This document shows positions 38,070 to 60,058 of a DNA stretch of 64,000 nucleotides, piece by piece. The stretch's first letter is position 1. Every line of letters starts with the position of its first letter. The DNA is from Klebsormidium nitens (taxonomy: Eukaryota; Plantae; Klebsormidiophyceae). The stretch spans positions 44,448 to 108,447 of the forward strand of contig DF237250.1 of the NCBI GenBank assembly GCA_000708835.1, in the 5' to 3' direction. The position numbers and the translations under genes were made by a program. The notes under the pieces were generated by a model that made no database searches, had not been told where the DNA came from, and saw only the letters and a list, made by a program, of their open reading frames with translations.

Positions 38070-40388
38070 TGCCCTTCGACCTCCAAGCGCCTCGTGAAAT
38101 ACCTGGAGCAAGACTTCGACGTCGAGAACCCGCCCGCCGATTCTGATCGACGCAGCATCTTTTTGCACGCCGACAAGAGGTCGAAAGGGGACGAAGAGTT
38201 CTTTTCGAAGGCGATGGCCGATCCAGACACCTACTTGGAGGCGGATCTCGTGGCCTTCTCTCCAAAGCTTGGCCCAGGCGTCCCGAAAGAGAAGCCGCAC
38301 GCCCAAGAAACCGTTGCTTTCGCCCTCAACCTCCTGTCAGGGCCTCCTGTCGAGACGCTGCTTCAGCAGCATGCGCGCTTCCGAACGGTCACTCATTCCA
38401 CCATCTACTACAAGCAGGTGGTGGCGTCCGCGGTGGACCTGCCGCGCTCGACGGAGGCGGTGTTCCAGGCGATCGAGCGCGACGACAGGCAGATTGTCCA
38501 AATACTCGGCGACGCCTCAGGCTTCCACTTCCTGAGGGGTTCGCATGGCATCTGCGATCCCTCATCAGCGAGCTCAGTCTTGTATGCGAACAACATCCTG
38601 GCCAAGGTGGAGAGCTATCTGGAGTATGTGCCGAAGCTGAAGGCCGACCTGGAAAAGCAGGGTTTTGTGGTGACAGTCGAACCCATCAATCCAAAGGTTC
38701 GACCTGTTGCCGAGTTACTAGGTCTGGCACTCCAAGACCCGCTCTCCATCTTCTTTGCAGGGCACTTTGACCCCCCTAGCACACGTCGTTTCCACTCGAA
38801 GTCGACATAATGATTGTCACTATTGCGAGGGCGAAGTCTTGAAGCCACCGGAGCTGAGCAGTTTGCGGCACAACCTCTCTCTCTGTGGGTTAGAGTCACC
38901 TTCGATGCTTGCTCTACAATCATTGCTCGAATTTTCGTTTGTACTTGGGAATGATTCGTCTCTCCACCCTTTCCTCTTCAGGGCACCCCAAGGCGGCCGC
39001 CCCCAGAGGTTCCTCTCGGCTTCTATGCGGACCCGGAGCTTCTCGACGACGAAGACTGGCGAGCAAAGTACATCATCACCCCGGAGCGGTACGAGGTTCT
39101 AATCGCGAGGCCCGAGAACCTGAGCCCGAGGGAGCAGCTGCAGGAGTACTCGTACGCGATGGTCAGGGAGGAGTACAAGGTCGACCCCGGCCGAGTCGAT
39201 CACGACTTCTACCTGCGCTTCTGCGCCGACTTAAACGAAGCGAATGGTACAAAGGAGGCCCACGCCAACTATCTGAGGTGATTACTTTGTTCCTTGCACG
39301 CCTTGCCTCAGGTCAGAATGGAAAGCCTTTCGAAGATGCTGGCCCGCCTTTCGTCTCGCTAGCTGGCTTTGTTTGTTCGAGAATTGCCATGAATCTGTAA
39401 GGTGTGCGCCAATACTGCGGCCAACCTCAAGCTGAATTAGGGCCTAATGTGGGTCTTGCTGTGGCTACGGTACGGGCCTGCTTTCGCGGTTGTTCAAGGG
39501 GTAGCAGTCAAGAATGTCTTGGCCGCGATTGGGCTGGTTGTCAGTTCCGCCTTGGGGCCGCAACCAGACTGTTTTTGGTGTGTCGAGCTGATTTGGGGCG
39601 TGATCAAGCATGCTCTTGGGTTGGCGGCTGTGGACTTTGGGTTCCGGTGCACCTTCATGCTTGTTTTAGGCTCCGTTTGGGGTTAGTCTGATTCGGAGAC
39701 CTGCTCTCAACTTCGTGATAGGGTTTGTCACGGGGGCGCGCCGGTCTTGGGCCTGCCCCCACCGTTCACTTGTGTTGTGAATGAAGAGTCAGGCTGGTTT
39801 TAGGGCCCCATCATTCCTTCCACTGCTTCTTGACGCTCATTGCAACCTGCAGGTTCCGTGAACACCGCTCGAGGCCCTCGTCGGGGACCTGGACGTAGCG
39901 CAGCGGTACGAGGATGGCGTGGTCCAGGAGTACGTCCGAGCAGTCCAAGATCCTGCCAGCCGTGTGCCGATCGCGGCACGCTTCCTTGCCTTCCTCGTTG
40001 ATTGCAAGGAGGCGGAGCTGGATCACGAGTCGGAGCAGTGGGAGGTGACATGCAGGCGGCCTATGCTGAGCTCATCGGGCCCACCAAGGAGCGCTTGAAG
40101 AGCATCTTCAGCATTTTCGGCTTCACGCAGCAGACCTCAAGGCCATCGAAAGCCGCCGATGGGAGAGTGAGCGAGGGCAAGGCCAAGAAGCGGAATGCGG
40201 TGGCGAACATGCTGAGGGCGGGCTTTGGGATCGAGCTACAGATGGCCGCCGAAAAGAGCGGGGGCAAATTCAAAACGCCCCACCTGTTGACGCCGACTAT
40301 CTATCACGATCTCCATCAGCGATACGGTCCGCTTAGCCCGAAAGTGGCCGCTCCCGAACCGGAGTGCATCATCAGGCCGCGAAGGTGA
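38070..40388 (+). pseudogene. Degenerate 3' half of the UL9-like helicase gene (element copy 1)
   Basis: Exons 38070-38697, 38982-39277 and 39853-40388 are paralogous to 51855-54189 with introns at the same positions. The acceptor is mutated to CAA at 38067-38069. The last exon has a 1-bp loss near 39868 and a ~10-bp deletion near 40047, both frameshifting. Confidence 0.85.
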
Positions 40389-40611
40389 TGATTTATTGTA
40401 GGATAGGTGCTTGAGATAGGAGGATTCGATTGGCATCTCACAATCTACATAATTTTGATTGTAGTGGTTATAGGCTTTCATCGATCTCAGAGCATTTTGT
40501 GTAGAGCCTCTGTCTCATAGTACGTTGACCATTGCGGTAGAAGAAGAAGCCATAGTTGCCCCCCCCGTGACCTTTAGCTAGGCATGCGTTGCTTCTGCCT
40601 TACAGCTAGCC

Positions 40612-41230
40612 TGTCAATATGGACAGCTTGGCAGACTTCATTGTAAAGCACGGTGGTGCAAATTGTCAAGACCATGCCGAGAACTTTTCAAGCGCGTGTG
40701 TGGTGTTATAGTTGATGGCATGAAGCCGTCAATATGCACAGTTCGGAAGACTTCATTGTATAGCATGGTGGTGCAATTTGTCAAGACCATGCCGAGTACT
40801 TCTTTGAGCCACCGAGTGAATTTATATTTGATGGTGCCCTAGCGGTCAGTGTAGGTGCCAGGACATCGGCCATCCTTCTGTCGTAGCCTCCTAGGAATTG
40901 CATAGCGTGTGGTTTTCCATCATTGCCTAGCTTTTCTCGCATAGGCGTTCCATCCTAAATTCCATCGGACATTGGCATACAGTCGTAGAAAGCTGTAGTG
41001 TCAGAACTTGGACGTGACATGCAGCACATAAGCTGCGGTGTCAAAGTTGTATCCCGGTCTCACCAGTGCGCCGCCCCATGGCACATGTTGCTAAAAGGGC
41101 TTATAACAGGATGTGACCATGGTGTGGGGCCGTCAATATGCACAGTTTGAAAGTCTTCTTTGTATACCACGTGGTGCAGATTGACGGGGCCATCCCGAGT
41201 ACTTTTCAACCCCCCGCCAATATGCATGTT
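40612..41230 (+). repeat. Palindromic repeat family (TGACAATCTGCA-N32-33-TGCAGATTGTCA), cluster downstream of copy 1
   Basis: Units at ~40615, ~40728 and ~41131 (gccgtcaatatgcac..tgtata..gtgcagattgacgg), plus a partial unit at ~41216. Confidence 0.85.
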
Positions 41231-41847
41231 TCGAAGTCTGGGCCTAAATTGACTCAATACATGTATATTATACTTAATCCGGCCTGTTGCCGAGTGGCTG
41301 CTGCGCTTGAAAAGACTATGTAACCTATCAGGTTACCATGCATCATCGAGAACGATTACATGGTTGACAGTGTGAGGTCAGACCTGCTCAATGTGCAGCA
41401 ATCTTGCGTGCATTTCATGTGGAGAATTCTTGTGTATGCAAACCTAACAGCATACGATGAAGAGTTTGGTTCGAAGCCGAGTGTTCCGCAATATGCACAT
41501 GCAAAGGCTGATAGAAATAGTGGAACAATGTGTGATGCAAGGAAAGCCTTATGTGGATGATGGAGAACAGACAAGCAGCCGAGCCAGAACCAAGCCGTGC
41601 CGGACGTCTCGTGATTACTTTTGGCAAAGAAAGTTGCCTTCTTCGTCCTCTGGCTCATCAAGTCTGCATGCCTTGCTTCTGACGGGCACATGCTGGCCAC
41701 GGCCAAGTCCGCCTCTATGACGCTACACCTTGAACATGACTGGAAGGACTCTGACTGCAGCTCCAAATCTAGCTGAATTCTTTGAGAAGATTGAGAAACC
41801 GTGAAAGCTGAGCAGCCCAACGCCCCACTTGCGGACTGTAGGGCTAA

Positions 41848-43299
41848 CTAGTGAGACCCAATGTTTCCAGCGACGTTCATAACCCAGATCAAGGCGTCTG
41901 GAGCATCTGGGTCGGCAGAATCTCCCATTGCCCCGCCAACCGCTGCTGGAAGGCGGAACAACGAGCGCAAAGACCACACGGCCGCGTTGGCCTCACCCCT
42001 ATTGGCGAACCCCGTCAAAATGACACTCGACGCAGCACCGTTAGCATTGGTCAGGAAGACGGGCTGCTGCCCGTTCAGGAGCGCAGGCTGCGTGCTCACG
42101 GCTGCCAGAATTTGCGCGCGGGTGGGCCCCTCGCAGACAACCAGCGGCGGGTCGAGGCACTTGTTGACGGCTGGCCAGTTGAGCAGAAAGCTGGAGAAAG
42201 AATGAAGGAGCATGAGGGATTGTGGCAACATAAAGTGAGTGACAGTGCTTGACGCACAGGAGCGCCCTGCCATGACCTGTCACTTCCATTTTCTCCTTCG
42301 TTACCTCCTGTGGTGAGATGGAGACAGACATGGATGCATCTGTGAATGCACAAACATAATGCCAACAGAGGTCCTGCTTTGACATGCGCGGATTAGCTGC
42401 TTCTCAGATTAGTGTAGGTCCCAATCAGCGCATACAAGAGAGTGTAATGCAGAAAACAGACTAGACGCGGTCAGCTTGCACTAACTTTCAATGGCTGCTC
42501 AGCTCGTTGGGATCTGCATTCCTTTTGCGTGAAAACCGCCCTGGGCAGCGCAATGCTAAGAATACTGGGTCGGCAACTGAACAATGGAAACCTCTTCTAA
42601 GCAGAGAGTGGTTGAAGTATCTGGCGGCAGCAAAGTAAAGATGTTGACATTGCGTACCGGTTTTGGTCCTTACCTATCGAACGCCTCGCTGAATGTGGTG
42701 TACTGCGCCAGAGCCTGCCTGGATGCCCCTATCAGATCTGCATGTGGAGTCCGGCTGAGGAGATTTAGGAGGGGAAGAAGCTCTGATGGCCGGGGAGGAG
42801 GCATAGCCTTCTTCCTTGGTCTCTCGCGTGCATGCTGCCAATCAATGAGGGGCTGGCCCGCCTTGAGAAGCTTGTCAGCAGGGCAGAAAAGGTGCGTGAA
42901 GTCCATGCCTTTGCATGGGTTCTCAAGTGGGACGGTGATGCGCTGCAGCATGCGGAACATTGCGACCTGCTCTTCAATGGCCAGCCTCCCCTCTGCTGCG
43001 GCCTTCAGAACATACTCCACCTTCTTGTCATTGATCATGTCTTCTGTCGACTCCACTGCCAAGCAGGCGTCCTCCACGCTCATCTCCAGACTTTCGACCA
43101 CCTCTTCCAAAGTAACTCCCGGGGGCAGGAATCTTCGGAGATTGTCCGCGATCAGCGCCAGGCTCAGGATGTCCTCCTTTGACTCTGCCACCAGTTTGCT
43201 GAGCGCCCTTACGTGGAAGCGTCTTAGGCTGGGCAAGCACTCTGCCCTCCTCACGCGCTCTGCTCGCTCAGGCGAGACTTCCATGGCCTGTGTGTCCAT
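41848..43299 (-). CDS. Hypothetical spliced protein, divergent from the PrimPol-UL9 gene
   Basis: Exon 43299-42674 (MDTQAMEV..FDR, donor ag|gtaagg) joins in phase to the acceptor at 42190 (SFLLNWPAVNKCLDPPLVVCEG..DALIWVMNVAGNIG). No family recognised; the 3' end is uncertain. Confidence 0.6.
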
Positions 43300-43719
43300 T
43301 GCGTCTTCTGGCGCTAGCACGTAGGGCGCTTGCAGTTCTCAGCTTTGAGCAACAATCGCTGGTCCCAGGTACGGCGTTCCGCCCCCACCCCGTTTGGCTC
43401 TTGAGCCATTCTGCAGGGCGCGCAGGCCAGTTGGCGCGACCTTACTAAGTTACCAGGCGGATCATTCGCCGAAGTTCCAAGATGGTCAGAATGATTTCGC
43501 AGCCGTCCGATCTGCACTTTACAACTTCAGTCTGCAAAGCTTAGGCCCGGCAAGTTAGATAATATAAGGACGAGGTTACAGCTCTGGTTTGAATCAAACC
43601 CCCTCACAACCGTAGGATAACAACAAATATGAGACGTCCAATTGTTGACGTTGCCGATCCGACGGTATCGAAATGGTTTTGCTCTGTCCCCCAGCCATTC
43701 CAAAGCCTGGCGGTCCGCC

Positions 43720-44860
43720 TCACCACTTCCTGCATAGCCTATGCACTATAAGGCCACGGCAGCCGTTACCATTTTCCCCTCAGCCATTCCCGCTCACTTG
43801 GAGTTGGGCTGCATTTGAGCTACCCACGCTAGTTGCCAGCGGTCTCATTCTAGCTGCCCATCTCGCTATCTTTCTCGCTCATGAATCAGGGACACTGCTG
43901 CATATCACCAGTGCGTTCTCCAAAAGGCGTTTCTGTTTTAGAAAGCTGATTGCAATGCCGCCTTCTCTCCTGACTTGTCTCCTGTAGCTTGCTTCTCAGG
44001 AGGTCCATAGCTGACTCGAAATTTCAGGTCAGCCAGGTTGCTAAGTAGTCAGAGGTGGCGCTGGCGTGATCTGGCACTTTGCGGCAGGTTTGGACCCTGC
44101 CTGGAACTTCACAGACATTCTAGAAGGAGGAAGAAAGTTCTTGCTGAGTCAGCATTTTGTTGACTCGGCACAGCTGGCGCCGGCACCCAATGGCGCTCAC
44201 CGGCACCATTGGGCACCTTACTCAGCTTGCCAGATTGCTGACTCAGCTTGCCAGATGGCCGACTCAGCACAGCTGGCGCGGGCACCCAATGGCGCTCACT
44301 GGCACCATTGGGCACCTGATTCAGCTTGCCTTGGTGGCTTGCCATGGTCTTCAACTTCATTTCTCAGAACTACAGAAAGTCCAATCCTGGAGGGAGCTCT
44401 TGAGCGAGCTCAGAAGCTGGCAAACTGTCTTCAGCGCTTGGTGCACGCACGCGCGCGGACATGCTCAGGTAAGAGCGACTTTCTTCATCTCTTCTGACTT
44501 CCTGAGGACCTGTGTTTTGTGCTTTGCAGTGGATGCTTCCAGTTCTTTGTAATCTTACACAGAGAGGGGCGCTGGGTTGATCTCCAAAGTTGGAGACAGC
44601 TTCTGCTTGCTTTTGTGAGGGGGCTGCCCTCTGCATCACCAGGGCTGTTCTTGAGAATCAGGGGCAGCCCCGGCTTTCTTCAATTGAGGGGAGAGGGCTG
44701 CCCTCTTGTAGCGCCAGGCTGCCCTCAAAAGCCGGGCGCAATGCTTGCTTCTGTTGGATTGGGGAGGGGGCTTGCCCCTTATCAGCGCCAGGGCTGCCCT
44801 TTAGAGCCAGAGGTCTTAGCCCCTGATTTTCCTAAGTGGGGGCTGCCCCCGCAGCGGTTG
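43720..44860 (+). repeat. Non-coding leader of element copy 2, with internal duplications and a GGGCTGCCC/GGGCAGCCC cluster
   Basis: Paralogous to 36575-37560; tandem duplication of gactc(a/g)gcacagctggcgc..cccaatggcgctcac..ccattgggcacc at ~44160-44330. Confidence 0.85.
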
Positions 44861-45178
44861 CCTGTTAGCAATCTATAAATCTGTTGGCAACTAACTTCAA
44901 TGATACATCCCACATGCATTCATGGGCATATATGTTTGGTGCAGGCTGATTGCGTGGCAACAGTAGAGCGTGTGGACAAACGCGCCGCGCTCCAGGTTTG
45001 GAGGTAAGCTCTTGCGCTCAGGTTTGTCTGGTCCTGCAGCTACTCCCCTTGCATGCTCGCAGGCCCGTGCTCCCAAATTGGGACTTCTTTAGCCGTTGCC
45101 TACATCCAAGTCTCACCTGAGCTCAATCGCTCATCATTTCGTTCCGGAACTCTGAGAACACTCTTGTTCTTGCAGCAG

Positions 45179-48100
45179 ATGGCGCGAACGGCTGTCACAC
45201 CTCACCAACACGAACCAGCGGCGTCAGTCATTGCTGGCGAGGAAGGCACCCCCACCGCTGATTCTCCACCGCCCAGCGTGGTGGGTGCATATCCTATTGC
45301 TCAGGCTTTACTGTCTGAAAGAAGGCCTTACCAATCTTGAGCAACGAAGTGGTGCGGACGTACATGCATGGAGCAGATAATTTGCAGTGGTTAGAGAATT
45401 CTGTGTATAGACCAGAGGTGCAGATTGTCGGGCCCATGGTCGGGCACTCCTGTTGTACGGCGCGGGGTCTGACAATTTGCATCGATCAGAGACCTCTGTG
45501 TACAGATGAGAGGTGCATATTGTCAACCCATTCGGCACTTTCCTGAGAGCTAGTGGATATCCATGCAAGTAGACTGTGCTTCCAAAGTGGGGCTCTCTCA
45601 ACCGTCGCCCACTCTCGTCCTCTCATCATTGTGCAGCAGACGGCAAGGGCAGAGACGTCCGTCGCAGCACAACGGAACGAACCAGCGGCGTCGTTCAGTG
45701 CTGGCAAGAACACCCCCGCCACTGACCCGCCCCCTTCCAGTGTGGTGAGCTCACGTGTCCGATGGCCTTGGCTCTGCTGTGTCATGTCAGAGAAGGGCAT
45801 ACTGATAGCGCGGAAGTGGTATGGTTGTAGCTGGGCAGTCACTGGCTTGCTTGGGGGTCTGTCAATCTGCATCGGTTGGAGACTCCTGTGAATAGACTGG
45901 AGGTGCAAATTGTCGGGCCCATGCCGGACACTTCCTTGTACTCGAGGGTCCGGGGTGTCAATCTGCATCAGTCAGAGACTCCTTGTGTCTAGACTGGAGG
46001 CGCAACTTGTCACCCCCGCGTGCCGCGCGCTTCCTTCAGATCCAGTGTAATTCATGGAGCAGGGGGTCTGACAATCTGCGTCGATTAGAGACTTCAATGT
46101 ATAGTCAAGAGTTGCAGATTGTCAGGCCCCATGACAGACGCTCCTTTGCTTCTTGTAAGAGATGGGGACCGACGAGATGACAATATGCATCGGTGGAGAA
46201 CTTGAATGTATAGACAGTTGGTGCAGATTGTCAAGCCCAACAGCTCCGGTCTGTGCTTGAATAGAAGTCACTGTATAGAACTTGAGGTCCAGGTGACAGC
46301 TTCCATCAAGAACTTTCTGGATCAGGGCTGTGATAGGGCCACACAGGTTCTGAAAAGTCGACCGTACGCGTCACGAAGCATGCTCTTCCCGCCTCTCCAG
46401 AACACATGGCCATATGCAGTGCGCATATTCGAAAGACCCTTACCCACAGCGAAAGACGCCCTTTAACGATACTGCGTGCTGTTCTTTGACATCTTGAGCG
46501 GCTGGATTTGAGTCGATATCCAACATACTCTGTGCCATTTCTATTCGCAGGCAAGAGACGGCCCTGAGGCTGAACGAGATGCCAGCACGAGCCAATTGCA
46601 GGGGTCCGCTTCGAGTGTGGGCACGAAGAGGCCCGCTGTGCAGATGCCAGCACAAGGAGGAGGTCCGGAGAGGAAGACCGTGACTCGAAGGAGACTTGTG
46701 AAGCTCTTAGAAGTCGCCAGTGGAGACCCAATGGGCTCTACCGCAACTCCTAGTGATGGCAGAGAGTAAGTTTCACATGCCACACGCTGTGTCGTGAGTT
46801 CACATGCCTGTCTAGGAGGATCTTTAGAAAGAAGTTTTGCCCTTCATGATGAGATGTTTCCAGTGTAGTCAAGCACGTTTCCATGGAGACGAATTCATCC
46901 AGATCGTAAGGCATTTCAAATCCGGACCTTCTGCTCGATCCAGGGAGGCGGAGATCCCGGGAGGCGAAGGAGAATCATCCATGGCCACGGACGATTTGCA
47001 GAGGGCCGGGCAGAGCAAGGTGGCCCTAGGGGACCGTCGGCCCGCGCAGAAGAAGCAACGGTAAGCTCGTCGGTTCAGCTTATCATTGCTGTTCTCCCTT
47101 TAAGGCCAGGTGACCCGCACTGATGGTGCTTCTTGAGGGGTGCTGAGGGCTTCAGAGCAGCCCTTAGTCTGATAGGTGCTGATAGCAAGAGCAACCCTTA
47201 GTCCGAGTGGGGTCCATCAGACTGTCCCACCTCAGCAATTTTCATAAGCGGCAAGGAATCGAGCCGTCAATCACTGGTGCTGCGGGTACTCCCCGTGCTG
47301 AACCCGACCTCTTTCTTTGGTATTCCAGCAAACGGGCAAGACCGGCCCCTCTCCCACTGGACGAGGCTGCTCGTGCGGCCGCTCGAGCAGCTGTCGAAGC
47401 TCACCGCCAAGCCCTGGAGGCGTTGAGGTACCCCACGACGCAGCGCGATGGGCAGGCCGTACACCAGACCGAGCTCGGTGATTTTGGAGGCCCGCTTGAT
47501 GCAGCCCCCGTGGTGAGTTGTCCGCAACAAGCTCCTACAAGTCCGACCATTGCCTGCGTGGGGCGCATCCCAAAGCTAGCCTGATTGATCAGCTCAACGG
47601 CGCTTGTAGGTCATGGCGTGGGGTTGACAATATGCACCGTTTTGAGAGTCTTGTTGTATAGCATGTTAGTGCAAATTGCCAGAACCATCCCGGGTGCTTT
47701 CCTGTCGGACCAAAGTAATGTTGCGGGTCATGGCATAGAGTCGACAATATGCACGGTTTGTGAACTCTGTTGTATAGCAAGGCAGTGCAGATTGTCAGGC
47801 ACCATGCCGGGTGCTTTCCATAGGATCCAAGTGATGTTGTACGTCATGGCTTCGAGCTGACAATATGCACGGTTCTAAGAGACTCTGTATAGCATAGGTG
47901 GTGCAGATTGACGCATTCAGCCCCGGGGGTGCTTTCCGTTGGACTCAAGTAATGATGTAGGTCATGGCGCAGAGCTGACAAGCCCGGTGCATTTCTTGGT
48001 GCAGACGCTCGTGACCGACGCTCCCATCACCAACGTTGGAGCCCTGGTCGACCGCGTTCAAGCTACGCGAGATGCTGAGAAGGCGGCCGCGCGCGAGGAG

Positions 48101-51100
48101 CGGTTGAAGCGCTACAAACGGACGCGACCCCTCGGTGTGCCACCCCAGGCGGCGGAGTCCCTGCCCCGCAGCATCGAGGACCCGGGCCTTCTCACCCCCG
48201 ACGCCCCCCCTTCTCGAAACACATCCCCTGCCCTGAGCCGTGAGCAGCCCCCCTCAGCGCCCCCCCTGGAGTTCCTCGGTGCGGAAGAGGAGCAGTTGCC
48301 AGCTGCGCCCGCTGTGCCCGCTGCGCCTCCGGTCGATCAGCCCCCCTCTCCCCCCTTCGTTGAGGAGGTTGTTACAGCACCGAAAGATCAGCCCCCGGAG
48401 CCCCTGGTCACAGTTCTGCCCCAAATCGGAGAGGCACTGCCCGAGGTCGTCCCCGGTCAGCCCCCCACCGTCGCCCCTCCCACCCAACAACAAGCGCCAG
48501 ACCCGCCGCACCAGCTCCCTGCAGCGGACGCAAGCCAGCCCTCTGCCGCTGAGCAGGAGCGGGAGCAGCCGACCGGGCAGTCGCCCTCCGCACTCGGGCC
48601 CCCGGAGCCGCTCGTAGCGGCCTCTGAAGAACCCTCCCCGGTGGTCGAAGCTGCGGCAGCAGAACAGGGGCCTGGCTGGTGCAAGAAACTCCAGGCCGCG
48701 CTTCGGCAGCAACGGGCGGCCGGGCATGCGGTTCTCGTGGCGGAGGACGTGAACGACGTTGGGGCGAAGCGCTGGGGCAGCTTTCAGGATGCTGCGGCCT
48801 TGGTGGCGCATCGGAGGTCCCTCGGGCCGTACGCGCACCTGTACGAGGTCATCCAGGACGATGCGTGCTGGCGCATCTACTTCGACCTGGACTTCTCGGC
48901 CCCCGCTGAGGACCCCGGCGATTTCGAGCGGAGGCTGCAGGCCTTCCACTCGGTCAGAGACCGGTTCCTGACCTCGGTGTTGAACTTGCTCGAACACGCG
49001 CTCCGCTTCCAGGCGTGCGAGGCGCACGGTGAAGCGCGCCCCCCCAAGCAGGGCTTCAAGTACAGCGTGCACGAGGTGCTCACGGACTTTTACCTGAGGG
49101 GGCTGGATGCCAGGAGGGCGTTCGGGAGGGCCTTCGGGAGCTTCTTGGAGAAACCCCCGAACGACCTGAAGTCAAGCGTCGAGCTGCTGCGGAAGGACGG
49201 CGGGTCCGCTTACATGTGGGACGGGGGTGTCTACGGGCGGCACCGCTGTTTTCGGCTGCTGGGGTCTTCCAAGTTCGAGGACCGTTTCCGTCCCCTAGTT
49301 CCATCCGAGGGCAGCTCCGAGGCGATTGCGGACCACATGGTCTGTCTCTACTCGGAGGCAGAGCTGGCCGGTTCCATCGAGATCAGTGCTGACCTCTTGG
49401 GGGAGTGGGCGACCGCGAAGCCGGCCCCCCCCACCCCTCCCCGTGTGGGGGCCTTCCGTTCGCAAGCGCTCACTTTCGACGAGGCGAGCACCTCACGGGG
49501 GCCTGGCGGGGACCTCTCCGAGCATGAGCGGGCCGTCCTCCTCGCCTGCTACCAGGAGGACCACGCAGGGGCCGAGATCACCCGGCTGGTGCAGGAGCGG
49601 CCGGGGGACTTCTTCGTCCACTTCCAAGCGCCGGATCCCATGTGCTGCATCGCAGGAAGGCGTCACACGTCACCCGGCAACCAGAACCCGTACCTGATCT
49701 ACAAGCGGGACGAGCCGCGCATCGCACGCTACCAGTGCTTTGCCAACAGCTGCAGGTGAGGTGCCCATGTAGTGAACCTTGAGCATTGCTTTGCATTCGC
49801 TAGACGCTGACAATCTGCAACGGTTGGAAAGCTTCAGTGTATAGACAGGGGGTGCGAATTGTCAGGGCCCACGCGCCGCGCTCCTTGAGTCTCACTTTGG
49901 ACTCTGACAATCTGCATCGGTTGGAAAGCTTCGGTGTATAGACCGGGGGTGCAGATTGTCAGGGCCCACGCGCCGCGCTCCTTGAGCCTCACTTTGGACT
50001 CTGACAATCTGCATCGGTTGGAAAGCTTCAGTGTATAGACCGGGGGTGCAGATTGTCAGACTCATGCCGCTCATGTCAGGCCTGATGAAATTGCGCGGTC
50101 TGGCCCACTTGGCTGAGACAATGAGGCTTGTTTCGAGTCCACTTGTGGGCCGTAATCAGGGGACGGGGCCAGATTGTGTTCAATGCAATCATTGAGGGCG
50201 ATGCGGCGGTTAGTCTCTCCCATAGAGGAGAGTGGCAGCATCTTTTTTGCACCCCACTGGATTGGTATCATGGTAAGAGCGCCTCCCAATCCATCTTTTG
50301 CAGGGGCGAGTGCCGGGTGCTGCCTCTTGATGTTCTCAGCACGCTGGGTTGGACGGAGGACTACGTGGACGATTCCGGAATGCGACCCTACCCCGTGTTC
50401 CGGCTCCAGCACGTGGGCAAACGAACCATCTTGGCTCGTGCCAAGAAAGGGGTCGGGAAGTCGAAGGAGTTGAAGGCTTGGGAGGTGGCCATGATTAAAA
50501 AGAATCCCGGGCTTTCCTTGTGCTCAATCGGAGCCAACATCTCGCTCTCCCAGAAGTATCGCCAGGATTTGGTCGACGCAGGCGTGAAGGACGTCGTGTT
50601 CTATCAGGAAGCGCCTCCGGGTCCAATTAACGCCCCCCGTGTCGTCTGCTGCATCAACTCCATCCACCGCGTGCAATTCAAGATGGACGTTCTGATAATA
50701 GACGAGATGGACATGGTTCTTGCCAATCTCAACTCCGAGGTCATGACCCAACGGGGCAGGGTGCTATCATGCCTGGAGGCACTTGTGGCGGGAGCAAGGG
50801 TCGTCATCGGCCTAGACGCCAATATCGACTCTGCACGCGTCTTGGAGTACCTCTTCATGGCGCGGCCGGACGCAGACTTGCACGCCATTCGCAACCGGGG
50901 CTTGTACCCAGCTTCGAGGCATGCCACCATCCGGGTCTTCCCGGTGGGAAGTGGTCTTCGCGAGTGCATCGGCACCGCGGTGCGGGACGTGCTGGACCGT
51001 GTCGCTCGAGGCACAAAGGTCGTGGTGAGTTCTTCTATCTCCAGGCATGTGGACATTCTCAAGCATTGAAAAGGCAGGCTGATCTAGCTAGCTGAGCCGC

Positions 51101-54100
51101 CTGGGTTCGGTCTGCTTCCAGCTTCGTTGCCGACTTTGATGAAATGTGTGCAGTATTCACAGCTGGTTTCAGTGCGATCATGAAGGCCGTGGCTGCCTCA
51201 GTTAAAACTGTGCCAGGCCGTTTTCAGGCGCGTGCTTGCGCTCAAGCTCGCAGGCTCGATTTCTGGCCGTTGTGGGCCTGTTCTCGGGGGCTGCTTTTGA
51301 CGCGAGGTTAAGCTGATAAGTTGGGGCTGCGGGTGTGAATTAAGGCCGTCGGCGAGAGCTCTAATAGACGGGTGCGTTTGGATCTAATGTAGCCTGGTTT
51401 GGGGGCTTTTTGCGGGCCCCGTTCGACTTACTTGATGTTGAAGCTGGGGCCGCGGTCGAGCTGACTTTTCTCGGTACGCGCGTGAGGTCTTTGCTTGTTT
51501 TCGGATCTGCTGTGGGCCTGGTTTCGGGGGCTGTTTTCGAGCGGCAGTCAAGTAGACTGACGGGGTTCGTGGAAGTGTACTAGGGCCGTGATCGAGCTAA
51601 CTTTTCTTGGGTACACGCGTACTTTCTTGCTCCTCTTAGATCAGCTATGGGCCTGGTTTCAGAGCAGCTCTTCTTGGGGGTTAGTCAAGTGGGATTTGGG
51701 TCGCTACTGGGTGGTTTAAAGGGCCGTTAGTAGCTGTGAGCTCGAATTTGGGGCCCGCTGGGGGCTGGGTGGACGTGTTCTAGGTTGCGGCAAGGCCTTG
51801 GGTCCGATGATTCAACCGTTCTTTGCTGAAAACAACTTCACTCCGATTGTGCAGTGCCCTTCGACATGCAAGCGCTTCGTGAAGCAGCTGGAGCAGGATT
51901 TCAACGATCGAGAACCCGCCCGCCGAGTCCGATCGACATCGACATGGCATCTTCCTCCACGCTGACAAGAGGTCGAAGGTCGACGAGGAGTTCTTCCAGA
52001 AGGCCATGGCGGATCCAGACACCTACTTGGAGGCTGATCTCGTGGCCTTCTCTCCAAAGCTTGGCCCGGGTGTCTCGAAAGAGAAGCCGCACGCTGAGGA
52101 GACGGTCGCTTTCACCCTCAACGGCCTCCCTGGCCCTCCTGTCCAGACGCTGCTTCAGCAGCATGCGCGCTTCCGAACGGTTACTCACTCGACCATCTAC
52201 TATAAGCAGGTGATGTCGTCTGCGGTGGACTTGCCGCGCTCGACGGAGGCGGTCTTCCAGGCCATCGAGCGTGACAATCAGCAGATCGTTCAGATGCTTG
52301 GCGACGCATCCGGCTTTCACTATCTGAGGGGGGCGCGCGGCATCTGCGATTGCTCATCGGCGAGCTCCGTGTTGTACGCGAACAACATCCTCGAGAAGGT
52401 GGAGAGCTATCTAGAGTATCTGACGAAGCTGAAGGCCGACCTGGAAAGTCAGGGGTTCGTGGTGACAGTTGAACACATCGATCCAAAGGTTAGGGTGCCG
52501 AGCTACCGGGATTTATAAGACTTGCTCTCTATGTTGCAAGATGCTCTCTGTGACGCTTTCAACACTCCTTGGTTTTTACTTGGAACTTGAAGGTGACAGG
52601 TGTTTACGCAAAGTTCCGTAGAAGGAAACCGTTGAAGCTAGCATGCATGAGCGTTTTGCAGCGCAATCTCTCCTTTCGTGGGCCGAGGAGTCACTTTCGA
52701 TGCTCGCTCTGCAACTGGTGCACGATTTGCGGTCTTGTGGAACTTAGGGTAGTGTTTCCACCCTCTCCTTCCAGGGCAGCCCCGGGCGCCCGCTCTCGGA
52801 AGTCCCTCTCGGCTTCGACGCGGACCCAGAGCTTTTGGACGATGAAGACTGGCGAGCCAAGTACATCATCAGCTCGGAGCAGTACGAGATCCTATGCGAA
52901 AGGCCCGACAACCTGACTCCGAGGGAGCAGCTACAGGAGTACTTGTACGAGCTGGTCATGAACGAGTACAAGGTCGATCCTCACCGGGTTGATCACGCCT
53001 TCTACCTCCGCTTTTGTGACGACTCGGACGATGCAAAGCGTACAAGAGACGCCCATGCGAACTATCTCAGGTAAATGCCTTGTTCCAATAACGCCTCGTC
53101 TCAAGCCGCACCCGAAAACTTTCGGAGTTGTGGGCCTGCGGGCTAGCTTTGTCAACCCCAGAGCCGCAGTCAATCTGTTTGAGGTGCGATGGTGTGACCC
53201 GGATCTCAAGCTGCTTCCGGGCCTGCTGTGGCTTCTAGGTCTCGCTGTGGGTGTATCATGGGCCCGCTTTTGCGCTTTTTCGAATGACAGCAGTCCTAGA
53301 ACGTTTGGCGCGACTCTAGGTTGGTTTTGGTTCTGCTTTGGCCCGCGATAAGGCGTGGTCGAGCTGTTGCTGAGGGTGGTTTGTCATAGTCTGTGGTTGG
53401 CTGCAGTGGGCCTTGGATTCAGTGCCGGTCGTGGTAGGAAGGGCGCTCAGAGGGACGGTTTTTGAGGGTGTGGGGTCCGGATGTTTTTGCTGTTTTTGTC
53501 ATGGCATCGGTAGTCCCAGGGGCTGTGGTATCACCGTTCAGCTGTGTTGTGAGGTTGATCTCCTTTGAAGTGCCGGCCAATCCAGCCCCCTCCCCGCGTG
53601 CTTCCGTCCACTGCTTCTCAATGCTTGTTATGACCCATCTAGGTTCCGTGAACACCGCTTCGCCGTTCTCGTTGGGGACCTGGACACGGCGCTCGAAGCG
53701 GCCATGTTGGCGGGCGTGGTCCAGGAGTACGTGAAACAAGTTCAAGACCCTGCCAGCCGTGTGCCAATTGCGGTGCGCGTCCTTGCCTTCCTTCTCGAGT
53801 GCGGCGAGGAGGAGCTCGATCACGAGTTGGAGCAATGGGAGGTGTCGGAGGAGCGCATGCAGGCTGCCTATGCGGAGCTCATCGGGCCCACCAAGAAGCG
53901 TTTGAAGAGCATGTTCAACCTCTACGGCTTCACGCAGCAGACCGCTAGGCCATCGAAAGCTGCCGATGGGAGACTGAACGAGAGGTGGGCTCAGAAGCGG
54001 AATGCGGTGGCAAAGGTGCTCAGGGCGGGCCTCGGGATCGAGATGCAGATTGCCGCGGGAAAGAGCGGGGGCAAATTCAAGACGCCCCACATGTTGACGC

Positions 54101-54189
54101 CTGCTATCTATCGAGGTCTACATGAGCGATATGGTTGGCTGGACGCGGAAATAGACGCCGCCGAATCGGAGTGCACAATTAGGCCGTAG
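45179..54189 (+). CDS. Intron-containing fusion of a PrimPol-type AEP primase (with UL52-like Zn finger) and a herpes UL9-like origin-binding SF2 helicase; one +1 frameshift at ~51907
   Basis: Core exons 47221-47512, 48005-49755, 50160-51024, 51855-52488, 52775-53070 and 53643-54189 join in phase. Primase motifs: HLYEVI..WRIYFDLDF, KYSVH, DGGVYGRHRCFRLLGSSK, and C..H..C..C. Helicase motifs: ARAKKGVGKS, VVCCINSIHRV, DVLIIDEMDMVLANLNS, VIGLDAN, AFSPKLGPGVS, LLQQHARFR. Upstream exons (45179-47060) are tentative. Confidence 0.82.
45400..46240 (+). repeat. Palindromic repeat family, intronic clusters
   Basis: About six units at ~45415 (half), 45470, 45858, 45955, 46068 and 46178. Confidence 0.85.
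47625..47990 (+). repeat. Palindromic repeat family, intronic tandem array (~116-bp period)
   Basis: Units at 47625, 47742 and ~47858, plus a partial unit at ~47977. Confidence 0.88.
49808..50058 (+). repeat. Palindromic repeat family, near-perfect 97-bp tandem array in the primase/helicase intron
   Basis: TGACAATCTGCA at 49808, 49905 and 50002; right arms at 49853 (imperfect), 49950 and 50047; each spacer is 33 nt. Confidence 0.95.
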
Positions 54190-54458
54190 AGGTGTTGATG
54201 TATCGAAGAAAGATCGTAGGAGTAGAGGCTTTGATGTACAAAGGTGTACATATGGTTCTTTGCTAGTAATTGTAGAGTGTGTGAGAGGCTGTTAAGGTGA
54301 TGTTTTATTTTAAACATTGTGCGTCGATAAGAGGTTCTCAATCTGCAATCCGCAACTCAAGTGTACATAGGGATTGTAGACTCTTCAATTCGAGATTTGT
54401 GTAAAAGAATCTACTTTGCGGGCCCGGATGTGTGAGCCCGTCAATATGCATCGTTTGA

Positions 54459-55171
54459 NNNNNNNNNNNNNNNNNNNNNNNNNNNNNNNNNNNNNNNNNN
54501 NNNNNNNNNNNNNNNNNNNNNNNNNNNNNNNNNNNNNNNNNNNNNNNNNNNNNNNNNNNNNNNNNNNNNNNNNNNNNNNNNNNNNNNNNNNNNNNNNNNN
54601 NNNNNNNNNNNNNNNNNNNNNNNNNNNNNNNNNNNNNNNNNNNNNNNNNNNNNNNNNNNNNNNNNNNNNNNNNNNNNNNNNNNNNNNNNNNNNNNNNNNN
54701 NNNNNNNNNNNNNNNNNNNNNNNNNNNNNNNNNNNNNNNNNNNNNNNNNNNNNNNNNNNNNNNNNNNNNNNNNNNNNNNNNNNNNNNNNNNNNNNNNNNN
54801 NNNNNNNNNNNNNNNNNNNNNNNNNNNNNNNNNNNNNNNNNNNNNNNNNNNNNNNNNNNNNNNNNNNNNNNNNNNNNNNNNNNNNNNNNNNNNNNNNNNN
54901 NNNNNNNNNNNNNNNNNNNNNNNNNNNNNNNNNNNNNNNNNNNNNNNNNNNNNNNNNNNNNNNNNNNNNNNNNNNNNNNNNNNNNNNNNNNNNNNNNNNN
55001 NNNNNNNNNNNNNNNNNNNNNNNNNNNNNNNNNNNNNNNNNNNNNNNNNNNNNNNNNNNNNNNNNNNNNNNNNNNNNNNNNNNNNNNNNNNNNNNNNNNN
55101 NNNNNNNNNNNNNNNNNNNNNNNNNNNNNNNNNNNNNNNNNNNNNNNNNNNNNNNNNNNNNNNNNNNNNNN
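54459..55171. other. Assembly gap (N run)
   Basis: Run of N; it begins inside a palindromic repeat unit (cccgtcaatatgcatcgtttga|N). Confidence 1.
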
Positions 55172-55498
55172 TCTCGGTTGCCCCCGTTGTTTGGTGGCCT
55201 TCCACGGCTTACTTCTGCGCAAGCCGGCCATCTCATCCAGCAGCGGCAGATCAATCTTCTGCTCCAACTCCCGTTGTGCTCCACGGCCGTATCTCTTGGG
55301 CACGATGAGGCAAACGGCCGTGGGAGCCCAAGAAGGAGAGCGTAACGGCGAGGGTCCCCGGGGGATCCTACTGTGAAAGGCACGGTCGAAAACGATCAAA
55401 AGGGCGTACGAACCGATTTAAGAACACAGAAGTGCCTCTAGTGCATCCGTCGACACGATGCATACCCCACGTGGCTAAGGCAGTTGACTTCCGTGCCT

Positions 55499-55860
55499 TT
55501 ACAGAGAGCGCTCGCTGTGGCTGGGGGCTGCCACAGACTCCGCGATTGCCACCGCAAAATGCCAAGGCCCATGGCGGCCCCTGGCTCGGTTGATGCGATG
55601 CACCTTCACCGGCAGCTCCACGCCTGTGCGACTGGGCTCGAACACTCCATGGTGCTTGTCGTCGCGTCCGATAAATCCCAGCGGCGCTGTGCGGTTTGCG
55701 GGATCGAAGATGCCAATCGCGTAAGTGTCAAAGCCACCCCCCAAGTTCTTCGAAAGCACGAGAGCTTGGCCAACCCAAAGCTTGCGGATCGCATCCAGTC
55801 GAGCTGCAAAGGTGACGCCACCGTTCGGCACAGCATTCGGCCATCTGGAAGCTTCCCCAT
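55499..55860 (-). pseudogene. Stand-alone HIRAN-domain gene with a -1 frameshift near 55818
   Basis: MGKLPDGRMLCRTV continues, after adding one G, as GVTFAARLDAIRKLWVGQALVLSKNLGGGFDTYAIGIFD..PLGFIGRD. It aligns from the start with the 56099 ORF. Confidence 0.7.
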
Positions 55861-56098
55861 GATACGGCCAGCACAATTGTGCCTTTCGTGTTTGCGCTTT
55901 CTCCCTCAGTCGGATATGTCGGCGACATTCGATCAGCTCACGAGTGTTGATAATTTGCAGGGCTCGTCGGAAAACCCCTAGTGTGTGGACCAGAATTGCG
56001 GTTTATCGGATGACTATGGGCCGTGCGCTTTTTGGCATATGTCGCACTTAGAGAGAGCGTGGAAGCCTCGAGGAGCACCGGATTTGGGGCTCTTTGAG

Positions 56099-56449
56099 AT
56101 GAATCGCCTACCAGACGGGAGCCTACTGATTCGTGCCGTGGGTGTGAGCTTCGAAGGTAGGCAGGCCGCCGTGTGCGCACTTCGGCCGGGACAAGAGCTG
56201 CTCCTTGTAAGAGATGCAACGAACGAGCACAATCCGCATGCAATCGCCATCTTTGAGGCGCAAGATACGAGCTCGCACCTTGGGTTCGTGGGGCGTGACA
56301 TCAACCGTCACGAGGCGTTTTGCGCGGCTCGTGCGGGCCAAGCCCTGCTTGCGCGCGTGCATAGTGTCGGGCCTTGTGGCAGCAGCGGCCTTTGGGGGTA
56401 CATCTTGAGGATCGGAGCTCCTCGCGATAGCTCCGTCGTTCTCGCATGA
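56099..56449 (+). CDS. Stand-alone HIRAN-domain protein
   Basis: MNRLPDGSLLIRAVGVSFEGRQAAVCALRPGQELLLVRDATNEHNPHAIAIF..HLGFVGRD matches the HIRAN pattern (GVxF..R..L..G..LxLxR...N.hD.hAI..LGfv). The start could be further upstream. Confidence 0.8.
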   Translation: MNRLPDGSLLIRAVGVSFEGRQAAVCALRPGQELLLVRDATNEHNPHAIAIFEAQDTSSHLGFVGRDINRHEAFCAARAGQALLARVHSVGPCGSSGLWGYILRIGAPRDSSVVLA

Positions 56450-56562
56450 TGGGGCGAGCAGTTTGGCCGCGCATTCTCTAAGTGCCGTTGAGAGACAATG
56501 GAAAGCCGTCAATATGCACGGTTCATGATAGGGGTTTTTTCACATAGCGCGCGCCGCAGACA

Positions 56563-56749
56563 CATCACAGCATCACGGATCACACTTTGAAATTACTTCG
56601 ATTGTATTTCTTCGTCGCCGGTGGCTGCTGATTTTTGTAGTGTGATGCTGTGATGCTGTGATGCTCACCTGCTTTTGCCTTGATTCATGGGTATCCTATC
56701 ACTTTTGGTACATCACACTTTACTTTTAAAGAAGTGTGATGATGTGATG
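56563..56749. promoter_or_regulatory. Inverted CATCAC/GTGATG iteron cluster, candidate replication origin
   Basis: CATCACAGCATCAC at 56563-56576 faces GTGATGCTGTGATGCTGTGATG at 56642-56663. A perfect 10-bp inverted repeat lies at 56711-56720 / 56732-56741. The origin function is inferred. Confidence 0.5.
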
Positions 56750-56789
56750 AAGAATTCCAAGTCTCCACTTTGCTCTCAACGGAGCACTT

Positions 56790-59495
56790 TCAGAGAGAAG
56801 AAGCTGAATCTACTTCGATTTTGACACCAATATGCTCCAAACCGCAACCCAAACATGTTCGAAGCTCTTTAATCTCTTTATCATCCTTTTGTGACGGATC
56901 GTAGCTTGTCATCCATGGGCGATCAACGTCATTGGCATGCCTCAGAGGCCTTTCCCAGCTCGTCTCTTTCCAAAGGTAGGCCTTCCCCTCCTGAAACATC
57001 TTCTCACCCCGTAGAAGCTTACACATCTCACCTTCTGGTTTGAACCACCATCCTCGGACCGTTTTTGCTTCCTGGTTGAATTGGTCGTTGTTTGGTCTGC
57101 TCAAGTTCCGAGTGCATGATCGCAGCTTAAAGGCTTTATGCAACGCTCCACAAAGTGCCGTTCGTGTAAGCCTAGCTTCCGCCGCTTGGATGTTATTGTC
57201 TCGTAGGAAGGTCTCGTATGTTGCCAAGATATCTTCACTTGCGGCCCATGTTTCTTTCGTTGGATGGAAGCAGCCGTTCTCAAGGAGAGCTTGGACCATG
57301 GATGCATACGTGGGAATCGAATGTGCTCTTAAGGCTTCTCCCCACGCTGTTTGGGGCACCAACTTTGCATTCCAAGTTGAGATGTCCAGAGATAGAAGGT
57401 ATTGGAAGAAGCGCTTTGCCGTTTCTGGTTGCTCGAGCTCATTTCCCAAACGAGTAAAGTACTCCTTGTCTCCCAGCTTCTCATTAGATGCTTCTACAGC
57501 CGCATACCGTCTGTCATCAACACCGCGCTTGACTGGCCACTCCTCGTTTGTTGTGAAGACGGAGTTGCAAAAGTCTCTCACTTGGATCGGGTCAATTCCT
57601 TTCTTCTCGAGCATGCTCCGTTCTTGAGTGATGTGGCTCTTGAATCGATTGTTGCTCTTGTAAGCTCCACCCCAGCTGGAGACCTCGTCGAAAACAGTGA
57701 GTAGTCGGTTGGCGGAAATGGAGTTGAATCTGCCAATCACCTTGTCGAGATCGTTACAGTACAAGTATAGATCCTCGCCGAGAATTCGAAGCCCTACAAA
57801 ATCCCATATGATGTTCTTTCCAGCACCCTCTTTGGATTTAAACACGAGTGCCACCCCGATCTTCTTCCCAGGCCGCTGGACTTGATGAGCAAGCCAGTTA
57901 AGTATGTATTCGTAGCATGCACGATCCCCGTTGGCCAGAATGTGGCGGAGGTGCCAGAAAAGTCGAGGCAAGCGCTCCTCGCAATCTCGCAACCCGTCTG
58001 CATCCAGCACAGCCACCTCGTCTTGGTCGAAGCAAAGTCCGTCATAGAGATTGTAGTCCCCCGTTGCGTGACCGTACAGGTTGGGGTCGAAAATGATGGA
58101 GTCGTATATCTTTCTCTCCGGCGATTGTCGCCAGAACTGCCCCGCAGTCGTTGCCGGCAGGTGTTGGAGACGAAGGCATTCGAAACGCAGCGCAAAGTCG
58201 GCACCGGACCTCAGTATGGTTCCATTGGACTTTAATTCTCCTCCTATACTCCGACGAAAGGTGGTTTCAATGTAGATGGGTTTGGAAACCCCAACTACTA
58301 CGCCACAATAGGTGTTAAGAACGGCCATAGTGATGTCTGCTAGCACTCTCTTTTTGGCCCTCTGCTCTTCTTTGGAAGCAGCGTCCATCTTATCACATAT
58401 ATATTGTTCGCATACGTGAAGGATCCTACCGTTTCCAAGCTTCTCCGGAAGGCATTGGGGCCAAAAGTGGACCCCGAGGAGACGCTTTGGCTTTCGTATG
58501 CACTCTTTACTCAGACACCGATAGAGTAAGAGAGCGCCGTTGGACAAGACGCTCCAATTGTTTGAGATGTGCTTCTCACCGTTGAGGCATGTGCGTGTGC
58601 CGACCGTTCTATATTTAAGTATGTGCCAATCATTGAGAATCTTGCTGTCCATACCGCAGAAGCGGCTCTTATCATTAGGGAGCTTCTCTTTTAGAAGTTT
58701 GGCGATCTTATCCAAAGCGCTTTGCAAGCCCGGAAAGCTTAGAGGATCTTTTAAAACGACGACACTATTTGTGGGCTGGGACGCGAGAGCCGCTGAGGAT
58801 TCGCCACTACTCATAGTTGAATTCGATCTGTCAAAACGTTCATTTGGATCACCCGTAAGCAATTTAGCGAGCCAATCGGGCATGGCTTGGGGGAGGTTGC
58901 ATTGCGTTTTGTCCCATTTGTAACAGTAAACAGTTCCCGAGTCGTCCACATACGAGCTTGGTTCAACGAAGAGGAGCCCGTTTCCTCCTCTCCCATCGAT
59001 AGCCCATTGTTGACCCTTGTACTTCAGACCTGCAAAGTTTGTGTGTCGATGGTGGAAGTTGGTGCTTGAGCTGCTCTTGAACAAATAATGAAGACCTCCT
59101 CTACCCGACTTTGCTTTCAGAGTCACAGGATCGCCATGTTCGAGTGTGAGTTGCTTCCACAGCTCCAATCCTGATCGAAATTTAACCCCTTCTGGGCTTA
59201 CCTTGCAATCTTTATCAATATCAAGGGCGTAGACGTTAGAAATTCCGGTCAACACGGCTATTGAGTTCACGTCGTTTGGTGCCTTCTCGATCATTTTATC
59301 AATACATTTGTGCCATATGGCAGCCGACGTGATGTGCACGTATGTTTGGAGATTACTAGCAATTTTCTTCCCTCCTTTGAGCTCGATTGTGAGTGGCAAG
59401 GTATAGAGCCCCTCTTGAGACAAGCGCCGTATGGCTGCTTCCAAGCGCCGTTTGGTCTCGCTCTTTGTTTTCATCGTTGGTCCCTGAACGTCCAA
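56790..59495 (-). CDS. Intronless primase-helicase: N-terminal bifunctional Prim-Pol domain, Cys/His Zn-binding region, C-terminal SF3 (D5/NrS-1-like) helicase
   Basis: 901 aa. NSIAVLTG..VYALDID, SGRGGLHYLF and IDGRGGNGLLFVEPS (Prim-Pol); CLNGEKH..YRCLSKEC; LNWLAHQVQRPGKK..KEGAGKN (Walker A), LTVFDEV (Walker B), VFTTN..DDRRY (sensor/Arg finger). Confidence 0.88.
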   Translation of the reverse strand: MDVQGPTMKTKSETKRRLEAAIRRLSQEGLYTLPLTIELKGGKKIASNLQTYVHITSAAIWHKCIDKMIEKAPNDVNSIAVLTGISNVYALDIDKDCKVSPEGVKFRSGLELWKQLTLEHGDPVTLKAKSGRGGLHYLFKSSSSTNFHHRHTNFAGLKYKGQQWAIDGRGGNGLLFVEPSSYVDDSGTVYCYKWDKTQCNLPQAMPDWLAKLLTGDPNERFDRSNSTMSSGESSAALASQPTNSVVVLKDPLSFPGLQSALDKIAKLLKEKLPNDKSRFCGMDSKILNDWHILKYRTVGTRTCLNGEKHISNNWSVLSNGALLLYRCLSKECIRKPKRLLGVHFWPQCLPEKLGNGRILHVCEQYICDKMDAASKEEQRAKKRVLADITMAVLNTYCGVVVGVSKPIYIETTFRRSIGGELKSNGTILRSGADFALRFECLRLQHLPATTAGQFWRQSPERKIYDSIIFDPNLYGHATGDYNLYDGLCFDQDEVAVLDADGLRDCEERLPRLFWHLRHILANGDRACYEYILNWLAHQVQRPGKKIGVALVFKSKEGAGKNIIWDFVGLRILGEDLYLYCNDLDKVIGRFNSISANRLLTVFDEVSSWGGAYKSNNRFKSHITQERSMLEKKGIDPIQVRDFCNSVFTTNEEWPVKRGVDDRRYAAVEASNEKLGDKEYFTRLGNELEQPETAKRFFQYLLSLDISTWNAKLVPQTAWGEALRAHSIPTYASMVQALLENGCFHPTKETWAASEDILATYETFLRDNNIQAAEARLTRTALCGALHKAFKLRSCTRNLSRPNNDQFNQEAKTVRGWWFKPEGEMCKLLRGEKMFQEGKAYLWKETSWERPLRHANDVDRPWMTSYDPSQKDDKEIKELRTCLGCGLEHIGVKIEVDSASSL

Positions 59496-60036: not shown

Positions 60037-60058
60037 GTCGAGAGCCGTTTGAGATATT

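Follow-up and report, generated by a model that had tools for sequence, protein, structure and literature searches.

Inverted half-site units in the introns of a Klebsormidium nitens primase-helicase gene: candidate binding sites for its own UL9-like protein

A 64,000-nucleotide stretch of the genome of the alga Klebsormidium nitens (assembly GCA_000708835.1, contig DF237250.1, positions 44,448 to 108,447, forward strand), referred to here as the window, contains a primase-helicase gene, KFL_003010140, whose introns and surroundings carry a repeated two-arm unit. A half-site scan and a profile search of the whole window recovered 15 intact units between 40,612 and 50,058. Each consists of the half-site YGWCAATHTGCA and its inverted copy, with 12-bp arms and a spacer of 32 bp (eight units) or 33 bp (seven units). 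The cis-repeat is real and non-random, is apparently undescribed and has a plausible cognate protein. We tentatively favour, at a little less than an even chance, the reading that the units are double-stranded predicted binding sites for the gene family's own UL9-like origin-binding protein (OBP), arranged in arrays of a decaying virus-derived gene family.

Intact units were counted with a fixed pattern allowing at most three mismatches, for which 100 shuffles gave a mean of 0.02 units with a 32-bp spacer and 0.00 with a 33-bp spacer. The arms defined the initial search, and a profile of the whole unit recovered the same 15. Beyond these there are one unit truncated by a gap of N (54439) and five remnants (41215, ~46270, ~47976, 55948 and 56507); the "about 20" palindromes of an earlier note on this DNA are reached only when these are included. 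The same note described a shared orientation, 12-bp arms and a 32-33-bp spacer, and this description holds for all 15 intact units. The asymmetric spacer aligns all of them in a single orientation, the remnants point likewise, and conserved sequence runs on outside the right arm only, as a 25-nt tail. The intact units form six arrays spread over 9.5 kb, with unit-to-unit periods of 95-117 bp. Contig depth over the arrays, which is not a copy number and was not used, is similar to that of flanking DNA except for 37.5 in the bin of the 97-bp array.

Twelve intact units lie in introns 3, 4, 7 and 8 of the main gene's 11 introns, and the remaining three lie 3' of a second copy of the gene, which is located upstream (36.5-40.7 kb) and has an internal deletion; the other seven introns and all exons of the main gene have none. 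All arrays are described on the plus strand. Two intact units (40612-40668 and 40727-40783) form the array at 40612-40783, 224 bp past the last stop of the upstream copy, followed at 41131-41250 by one intact unit (41131-41186) and, from 41215, a remnant that has lost internal sequence. Intron 3 (45281-45636) holds two units starting at 45375 and 45470 (array 45375-45525), and intron 4 (45745-46550) holds four (45860, 45956, 46069 and 46178) and the remnant at ~46270 (array 45860-46310). Exon 4 with intron 4 is a duplicate of exon 3 with intron 3 (66% identical). Three units in intron 7 (47513-48004) start at 47625, 47742 and 47858 with a period of 116-117 and are followed by the collapsed fourth at ~47976 (array 47625-48004), in which, at 47965-48004, the start of the left arm is joined to the tail via a short shared sequence. 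The last three (49808, 49905 and 50002; period 97, 95% alike) occupy 49808-50058 in intron 8 (49756-50303), which separates the coding sequence of the primase from that of the helicase. Ten of the 11 introns were derived from contigs bridging GT..AG in three RNA-type runs of three studies, where the RNA status is the tool's guess and none of the runs is recorded as RNA; contigs of the DNA run read through these introns. Intron 8 was placed by splice signals, loose contig ends at 50,299 and the annotated protein.

Downstream of the main gene, a left arm and the start of a spacer (54439-54458) lie ~250 bp past its last stop and are cut by an N gap of 713 bases (54459-55171), within which further units are predicted. 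A degenerate unit with a 37-bp spacer (55948-56008; nhmmer E 0.0033) lies between two divergent HIRAN frames, one on the plus strand (55982-56449; PF08797, E 1.2e-05) and a HIRAN-like one on the minus strand (55514-55837). A left arm alone (56507-56525) follows ~58 bp past the stop of the HIRAN frame on the plus strand and immediately precedes the neighbouring element's CATCAC repeats. Of the two sites previously placed at 54.3 and 56.5 kb, that at 54336 is a weak half-site and that at 56507 a left arm without its partner; the proposed tie of the HIRAN pair to the same element is plausible, given the second, divergent frame, the degenerate unit between the two and the left arm behind. Within the window, units occur only around the primase-helicase gene, its upstream copy and the HIRAN pair. 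When up to one mismatch is allowed, there are 2 half-sites in 1-33,250, 1 in 33,251-40,400, 36 in 40,401-56,530 and 0 in 56,531-64,000, and no unit was found in 1-40.4 kb or 56.6-64 kb, which include 33 kb of host genes and a neighbouring segment of Polinton-like virus (PLV) type. The earlier placement of units in introns and behind both helicase copies (for the main gene, the gap-cut unit), with none in the host genes at 1-33 kb, is borne out.

The arms are the most constrained part of the unit. Between arrays, identity is 82-85% in the arms, 63% in the spacer, 51% in the first 25 nt of the 3' tail and 33-37% in the farther flanks, as compared with 39% for random 33-mers; spacer identity is 75% within clusters versus 63% between them. 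Parsimony on the unit tree gave 1.08 and 1.17 changes per column for the two arms against 2.61 for the spacer, 3.14 for the tail and 5.3 for the 5' flank (p = 0.0003), so the arms pass the comparison with their linkers that had been put forward as a check. Mirrored positions of the two arms vary alike (1, 3 and 8 in both; rho 0.61, permutation p = 0.02). Nevertheless, no covariation was detected between the arms of a unit: 150 of 180 arm positions match their partner versus 150.1 with permuted partners, 138 of 168 versus 138.8 when unit 50002 is left out, and 390 of 500 shuffles pair equally well. Arm position 8 matches its partner in three of the 15 units, and in four even if G-U is counted. 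Since partners match no better than permuted partners, each arm tracks the consensus independently, which fits the mark of a half-site read by protein and not that of a stem. The dyad as a whole fits two protein-binding half-sites at a set distance rather than a hairpin, and the suggestion of cruciform or hairpin formation is not supported by the same evidence. Likewise, the claim that arm symmetry and spacer length persist while the linkers diverge is correct for length only: pairing is not kept, and the spacer and tail are themselves partly conserved. The heptamer TGTATAG, formerly described as central, is off-centre, lying 16-18 nt from the left arm and 7-9 nt from the right, and is exact in 10 of the 15 units. 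The 32-bp spacer arises from three partitions around it (18+7, 17+8 and 16+9), and three partitions giving one total suggest selection on total length.

The gene that carries most of the units encodes a protein with an appropriate predicted architecture. The helicase exon in the window matches KFL_003010140 at 96%. By locus tag, nine further annotated copies of this gene are present on eight other K. nitens scaffolds (KFL_001560170, KFL_001380210, KFL_001380250, KFL_002280190, KFL_010460010, KFL_011930020, KFL_009210030, KFL_005100080 and KFL_002040040). Eight rows, of which seven are annotated K. nitens genes, form a close group that is 73-81% identical to member P0005 in the helicase core, and two genes are farther off. 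The C-terminal domains of KFL_002040040 and KFL_005100080 have diverged. One of the two more distant genes, KFL_002040040 (P0167), clusters at 90% identity with transcripts of Klebsormidium subtile, and the sequences suggest that it is one conserved, possibly domesticated copy beside an expanding group. A profile of 37 family sequences matches UL9 of herpes simplex virus 1 (HSV-1) over the helicase core (E 2e-44; UL9 residues 74-414) and human PrimPol (E 1.4e-11). The catalytic motifs of an archaeo-eukaryotic primase (AEP), namely YFDLD, YSVH and WD, are present together with a Cys/His cluster, and PF02399 was found in all six annotated copies scanned, fused behind the AEP in P0005, P0008 and P0009. 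The protein is a member of the R8/pF1055L-type primase-helicases, in which an AEP is fused to a UL9-related superfamily 2 (SF2) helicase, and the top viral fold matches are primase-helicases of this kind (e.g. Pyramimonas orientalis virus, E 3e-30). An LLxxGGVESNPGP motif, presumably a 2A-like ribosome-skipping motif, lies upstream of the primase in P0010 (KFL_009210030, residue 121) and P0160 (KFL_001380210, residue 403), and is also found at residue 3 of P0009; its position upstream of the primase suggests a polyprotein in these sequences. It is absent from all six frames of the window.

The region behind the helicase is predicted to fold like the C-terminal domain of UL9. For the model of paralogue P0006 (predicted local distance difference test score, pLDDT, 86), UL9 was the first-ranked match in the PDB, with model residues 45-744 aligned to chain residues 36-808 (Z 24.5, 545 residues, root-mean-square deviation [rmsd] 12.7), while most of the other helicases among the matches listed stop near model residue 500 with ~310-350 residues aligned. 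When the last exon was folded alone (pLDDT 84), UL9 588-823 ranked first of 48,161 chains, a weak match (rmsd 5.7, 143 residues aligned) with a Z of 5.0 that falls inside the range the tool calls common. The runners-up, with Z of 3.4-4.1, were an archaeal virus protein, a viral interferon regulatory factor (IRF) DNA-binding domain and two plasmid replication initiators. As the score is low, support for the UL9-like C-terminal fold comes from the rank and from the match lying at the expected position in the chain.

If the units are sites for this protein, one protein unit would bind each arm, the two being 44-45 bp apart, with direction given by the asymmetry of the spacer motif and by the 3' tail. 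Opening and priming of the DNA at the dyad would fall to the helicase and the primase fused to it, and the arrays would act as dispersed origins or enhancers. The arrays would have expanded by local tandem duplication within introns, where they leave the reading frame unbroken. Because of the frameshifts in both local gene copies, intact paralogues would need to supply the protein in trans. The earlier proposal of binding or origin sites for the encoded UL9-like protein accordingly divides into two parts: the dyad anatomy and the predicted C-terminal region speak indirectly for binding, whereas an origin role is weaker since the spacer is 53% AT compared with 47% in unit-free introns.

Several observations weigh against this reading. 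The spacers of herpes origins are AT-rich, to which the spacer composition just given is a poor match, and the frameshifts in both local copies as well as the low fold score of the isolated last exon count against it in the same way. A Foldseek search with the isolated C-terminal domain gave no match, and the RVKNL motif was absent from the family sequences inspected; according to passages of the UL9 literature, that motif belongs to the SAP subdomain (748-799) through which UL9 reads DNA (PMC13483431; PMC12543377). Through their common descent the 15 units are not independent of one another, CpG decay may account for the variation at arm position 1, and position-specific constraint on the arms would be equally expected if a transposase or a host factor bound them. 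In five giant-virus loci, neither a fixed-spacer dyad family nor a unit was found within 10 kb of the related gene. Finally, loose contig ends abut units, before 47,615 in one DNA contig and behind 46,188 in contigs from each of the three RNA-type runs, and their sequences were not found in the window. Being foreign to the window, they indicate unit-like sequence elsewhere in the genome, whether next to paralogues or not.

Known viral systems offer partial parallels. The arrays would, by analogy and with the same tentative confidence, work like herpes oriS in the design of the unit and like baculovirus homologous regions (hrs) in layout. Passages of two sources describe herpes origins as a pair of OBP boxes that flank a spacer in inverted orientation (PMC12543377; PMC4944276). 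As in HSV-1 oriS and roseolovirus oriLyt (OBP-1/OBP-2), two inverted boxes stand at a set distance in all 15 intact units, and the product of the adjoining gene is a UL9-type helicase whose C-terminal region is predicted to be UL9-like. Unlike in herpes OBP origins, the spacer is not AT-rich, the arm consensus is unrelated to the herpes box GTTCGCAC, the primase is fused to the protein, and the copies number at least 15, most of them within spliceosomal introns of the very gene that encodes the helicase. Identification as a herpes origin proper was rejected on spacer and box sequence. Baculovirus hrs comprise 3-8 units of 64 bp and serve as origins and enhancers, as stated in a passage of PMC4535591. 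The several dispersed arrays of 2-4 imperfect palindromic units resemble them; however, the hr palindrome is contiguous and 24-28 bp long whereas the present arms of 12 bp are 32-33 bp apart, hrs are AT-rich, and no baculovirus genes were seen here. A baculovirus hr proper was rejected for want of a contiguous palindrome. As to the protein, passages of PMC11253617 describe the same fusion of an AEP to a UL9-related SF2 helicase in mimivirus R8, pF1055L of African swine fever virus (ASFV), Ostreid herpesvirus 1 (OsHV-1) and the SF2_hel of Yaraviridae. The viral genes differ from the present one, which has 11 introns and, within a single algal nuclear genome, at least nine further annotated copies, of which some carry a 2A-like peptide; the five viral loci examined are without dyad arrays.

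The main rival, somewhat unlikely yet deserving the most weight among the alternatives, is a non-autonomous palindromic repeat resembling a miniature inverted-repeat transposable element (MITE), of the kind of pithovirus M1/M2, that landed in introns and multiplied in tandem, with the arms kept as terminal repeats for an unrelated transposase and the helicase gene serving as no more than the site of insertion. Short inverted arms flank a short core, as expected for such a repeat, unit-like sequence with different flanks occurs beyond the window, and the collapsed unit at ~47976 resembles a palindrome deletion. Pithovirus M1/M2 are likewise palindromic units that occur in clusters, have a short core (37 bp) and are more alike within clusters than between them, as described in part of PMC10664404. 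On the other hand, their arms measure 47-54 bp with a putative TA duplication, whereas the units here combine 12-bp arms with one orientation and an asymmetric tail conserved beyond the right arm only. No common target-site duplication was found at the arms (a direct repeat adjoins them in two of the 15 units, with differing sequences), and a canonical MITE was rejected on this ground. All six arrays and the remnants point one way, for which our own arithmetic gives a chance of ~0.03-0.06 if the arrays are independent. There is moreover no unit in 33 kb of host DNA, and no transposase was found among the window frames scanned with Pfam, where one weak transposase-associated match (E 0.021) lies at 59581.

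A more far-reaching form of the favoured reading, which we regard as doubtful, is a new kind of intron-rich, self-copying nuclear element in Klebsormidium whose PrimPol-UL9 fusion recognises its own intronic origins and amplifies the locus, with neither a transposase nor a DNA polymerase of its own; the dyad would then be the first DNA target of the R8/pF1055L family, which comprises origin-binding proteins of giant viruses.

It is improbable that the units are bound by a different protein, namely a regulator encoded by the host or by the element, and serve as enhancer or silencer arrays of the gene cluster instead of as sites of the helicase. The evidence from unit anatomy applies equally to such a protein, the units lie in introns and near the 3' ends of spliced genes, and baculovirus hrs are also enhancers (PMC4535591, in part). 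Against this, the neighbouring host genes are without units, no candidate regulator was identified (the orphan gene of the locus has no relatives), and the unit-bearing gene itself encodes a predicted domain of origin-binding type.

Sense-strand RNA hairpins affecting splicing or 3'-end formation are very unlikely. Every unit lies in the sense direction, the first 3' units coincide with the ends of RNA-type contigs (at 40653-40693 in three runs, a weak hint of a transcript end, and at 54443), nine of the 15 units fold at z below -2, and in 12 of 15 a C-G or U-G pair adjoins the arms on their inner side. However, the lack of covariation and the poor pairing at arm position 8 tell against a conserved stem, for five units the fold is no stronger than that of shuffles (z above -1), 12 units lie within introns that are spliced out, and no Rfam family was found at the units, the single weak Rfam match in the window being at 37.4 kb. 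The least probable alternative is that a site-specific recombinase uses the units for crossover, or that they are recombination hot spots at which cruciforms form. A tyrosine-recombinase-like frame lies 3.5 kb away and the PLV-type segment begins right behind the half unit at 56507. However, sites of tyrosine recombinases have spacers of 6-8 bp and require an exact length, while the spacer here is 32 or 33 bp, that frame belongs to a segment without units, and mismatched arms with a 32-nt loop would disfavour cruciform extrusion.

Relatives of the unit were also sought in other genomes. Fixed-pattern scans returned 24 single-dyad stretches in viral contigs and at least 119 in metagenome contigs, which were rejected as chance matches; the unit profile over these 143 loci gave a best E of 0.0024, and none had two separate units. 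Nor did the 143 loci match the window or six family proteins. With the K. nitens family alignment, no related loci were found in viral contigs or prokaryote genomes, the D5-like helicase gave no related loci, and 29 phage HIRAN loci contained no units (best E 0.34). In titles and abstract openings of the literature on Klebsormidium or on UL9-like primase fusions and elements, there is no description of the repeat or the gene family, although supplementary gene tables of endogenous-virus papers may list the genes; neither UL9 nor palindromes come up in the part of PMC12768974 consulted.

In giant viruses, ASFV and mollusc herpesviruses, relatives of the herpes OBP come fused to a primase, and the literature passages on them give no DNA target. 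The 57-bp dyad, present in multiple copies inside a gene of this type, supplies a definite substrate with which the question of the DNA target becomes testable, and, if the favoured reading is true, would provide the first candidate target for the R8/pF1055L-type family. An endogenised viral replication gene would, on the same condition, keep its cis-sites by parking them in introns, which could account for the multi-copy state of the gene in K. nitens. If instead the MITE-like reading is true, the repeat is undescribed but ordinary.

The remaining features of the locus are as follows. The main gene (KFL_003010140, plus strand, 43430-54443, start approximate) has 12 exons and is frameshifted near 51.9 kb; it encodes a low-complexity N-terminus, a PrimPol-type AEP with the Cys/His cluster (exon 8), a UL9-type SF2 helicase (exons 9-10) and the C-terminal region (exons 11-12). 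The spliced upstream copy (plus strand, 36520-40693, start approximate) is without the primase and first helicase exons and has frameshifts near 39.87 and 40.05 kb. Both copies start near a common CAGTTGGCGCGACCTT motif (36526-36545 and 43431-43450), which we take to be E2F-like and which might couple expression to S phase. Between the copies, on the minus strand, lies the orphan two-exon spliced gene KFL_003010130 (41537-43467, 322 amino acids), for which neither relatives nor a usable fold were found. No terminal inverted repeats bounding an element were found. Capsid, packaging ATPase and PolB genes were absent from the stop-to-stop frames scanned with Pfam and PHROGs (a subset of 175, on a 108-kb scaffold that exceeds the window), and for this reason the block is not filed as a giant endogenous virus.

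The neighbouring PLV-type segment (minus strand, 56563-61039) has CATCAC inverted repeats and no units. It includes a long open reading frame of 903 codons for a Prim-Pol with a DUF5906 helicase (56790-59501) and the tyrosine-recombinase-like frame (60059-61039), whose nearest clusters are mostly viral and commonly Preplasmiviricota. The CATCAC/GTGATG inverted repeats stand directly behind the Prim-Pol and DUF5906 helicase gene and are possibly the segment's own origin. On the other side, between the last host gene and the element, a second repeat family occupies 34071-34603, with five ~86-nt copies spaced 81-145 bp and an internal hairpin-like motif (GGCTC..GAGC). Just left of the upstream gene copy, a high-copy repeat (36131-36412) has a summed contig depth of 322 compared with ~17 nearby and loose ends on both sides. 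Within the host DNA there is a short (GGTTTTAG)n array at 3680-3716, presumably telomere-like.

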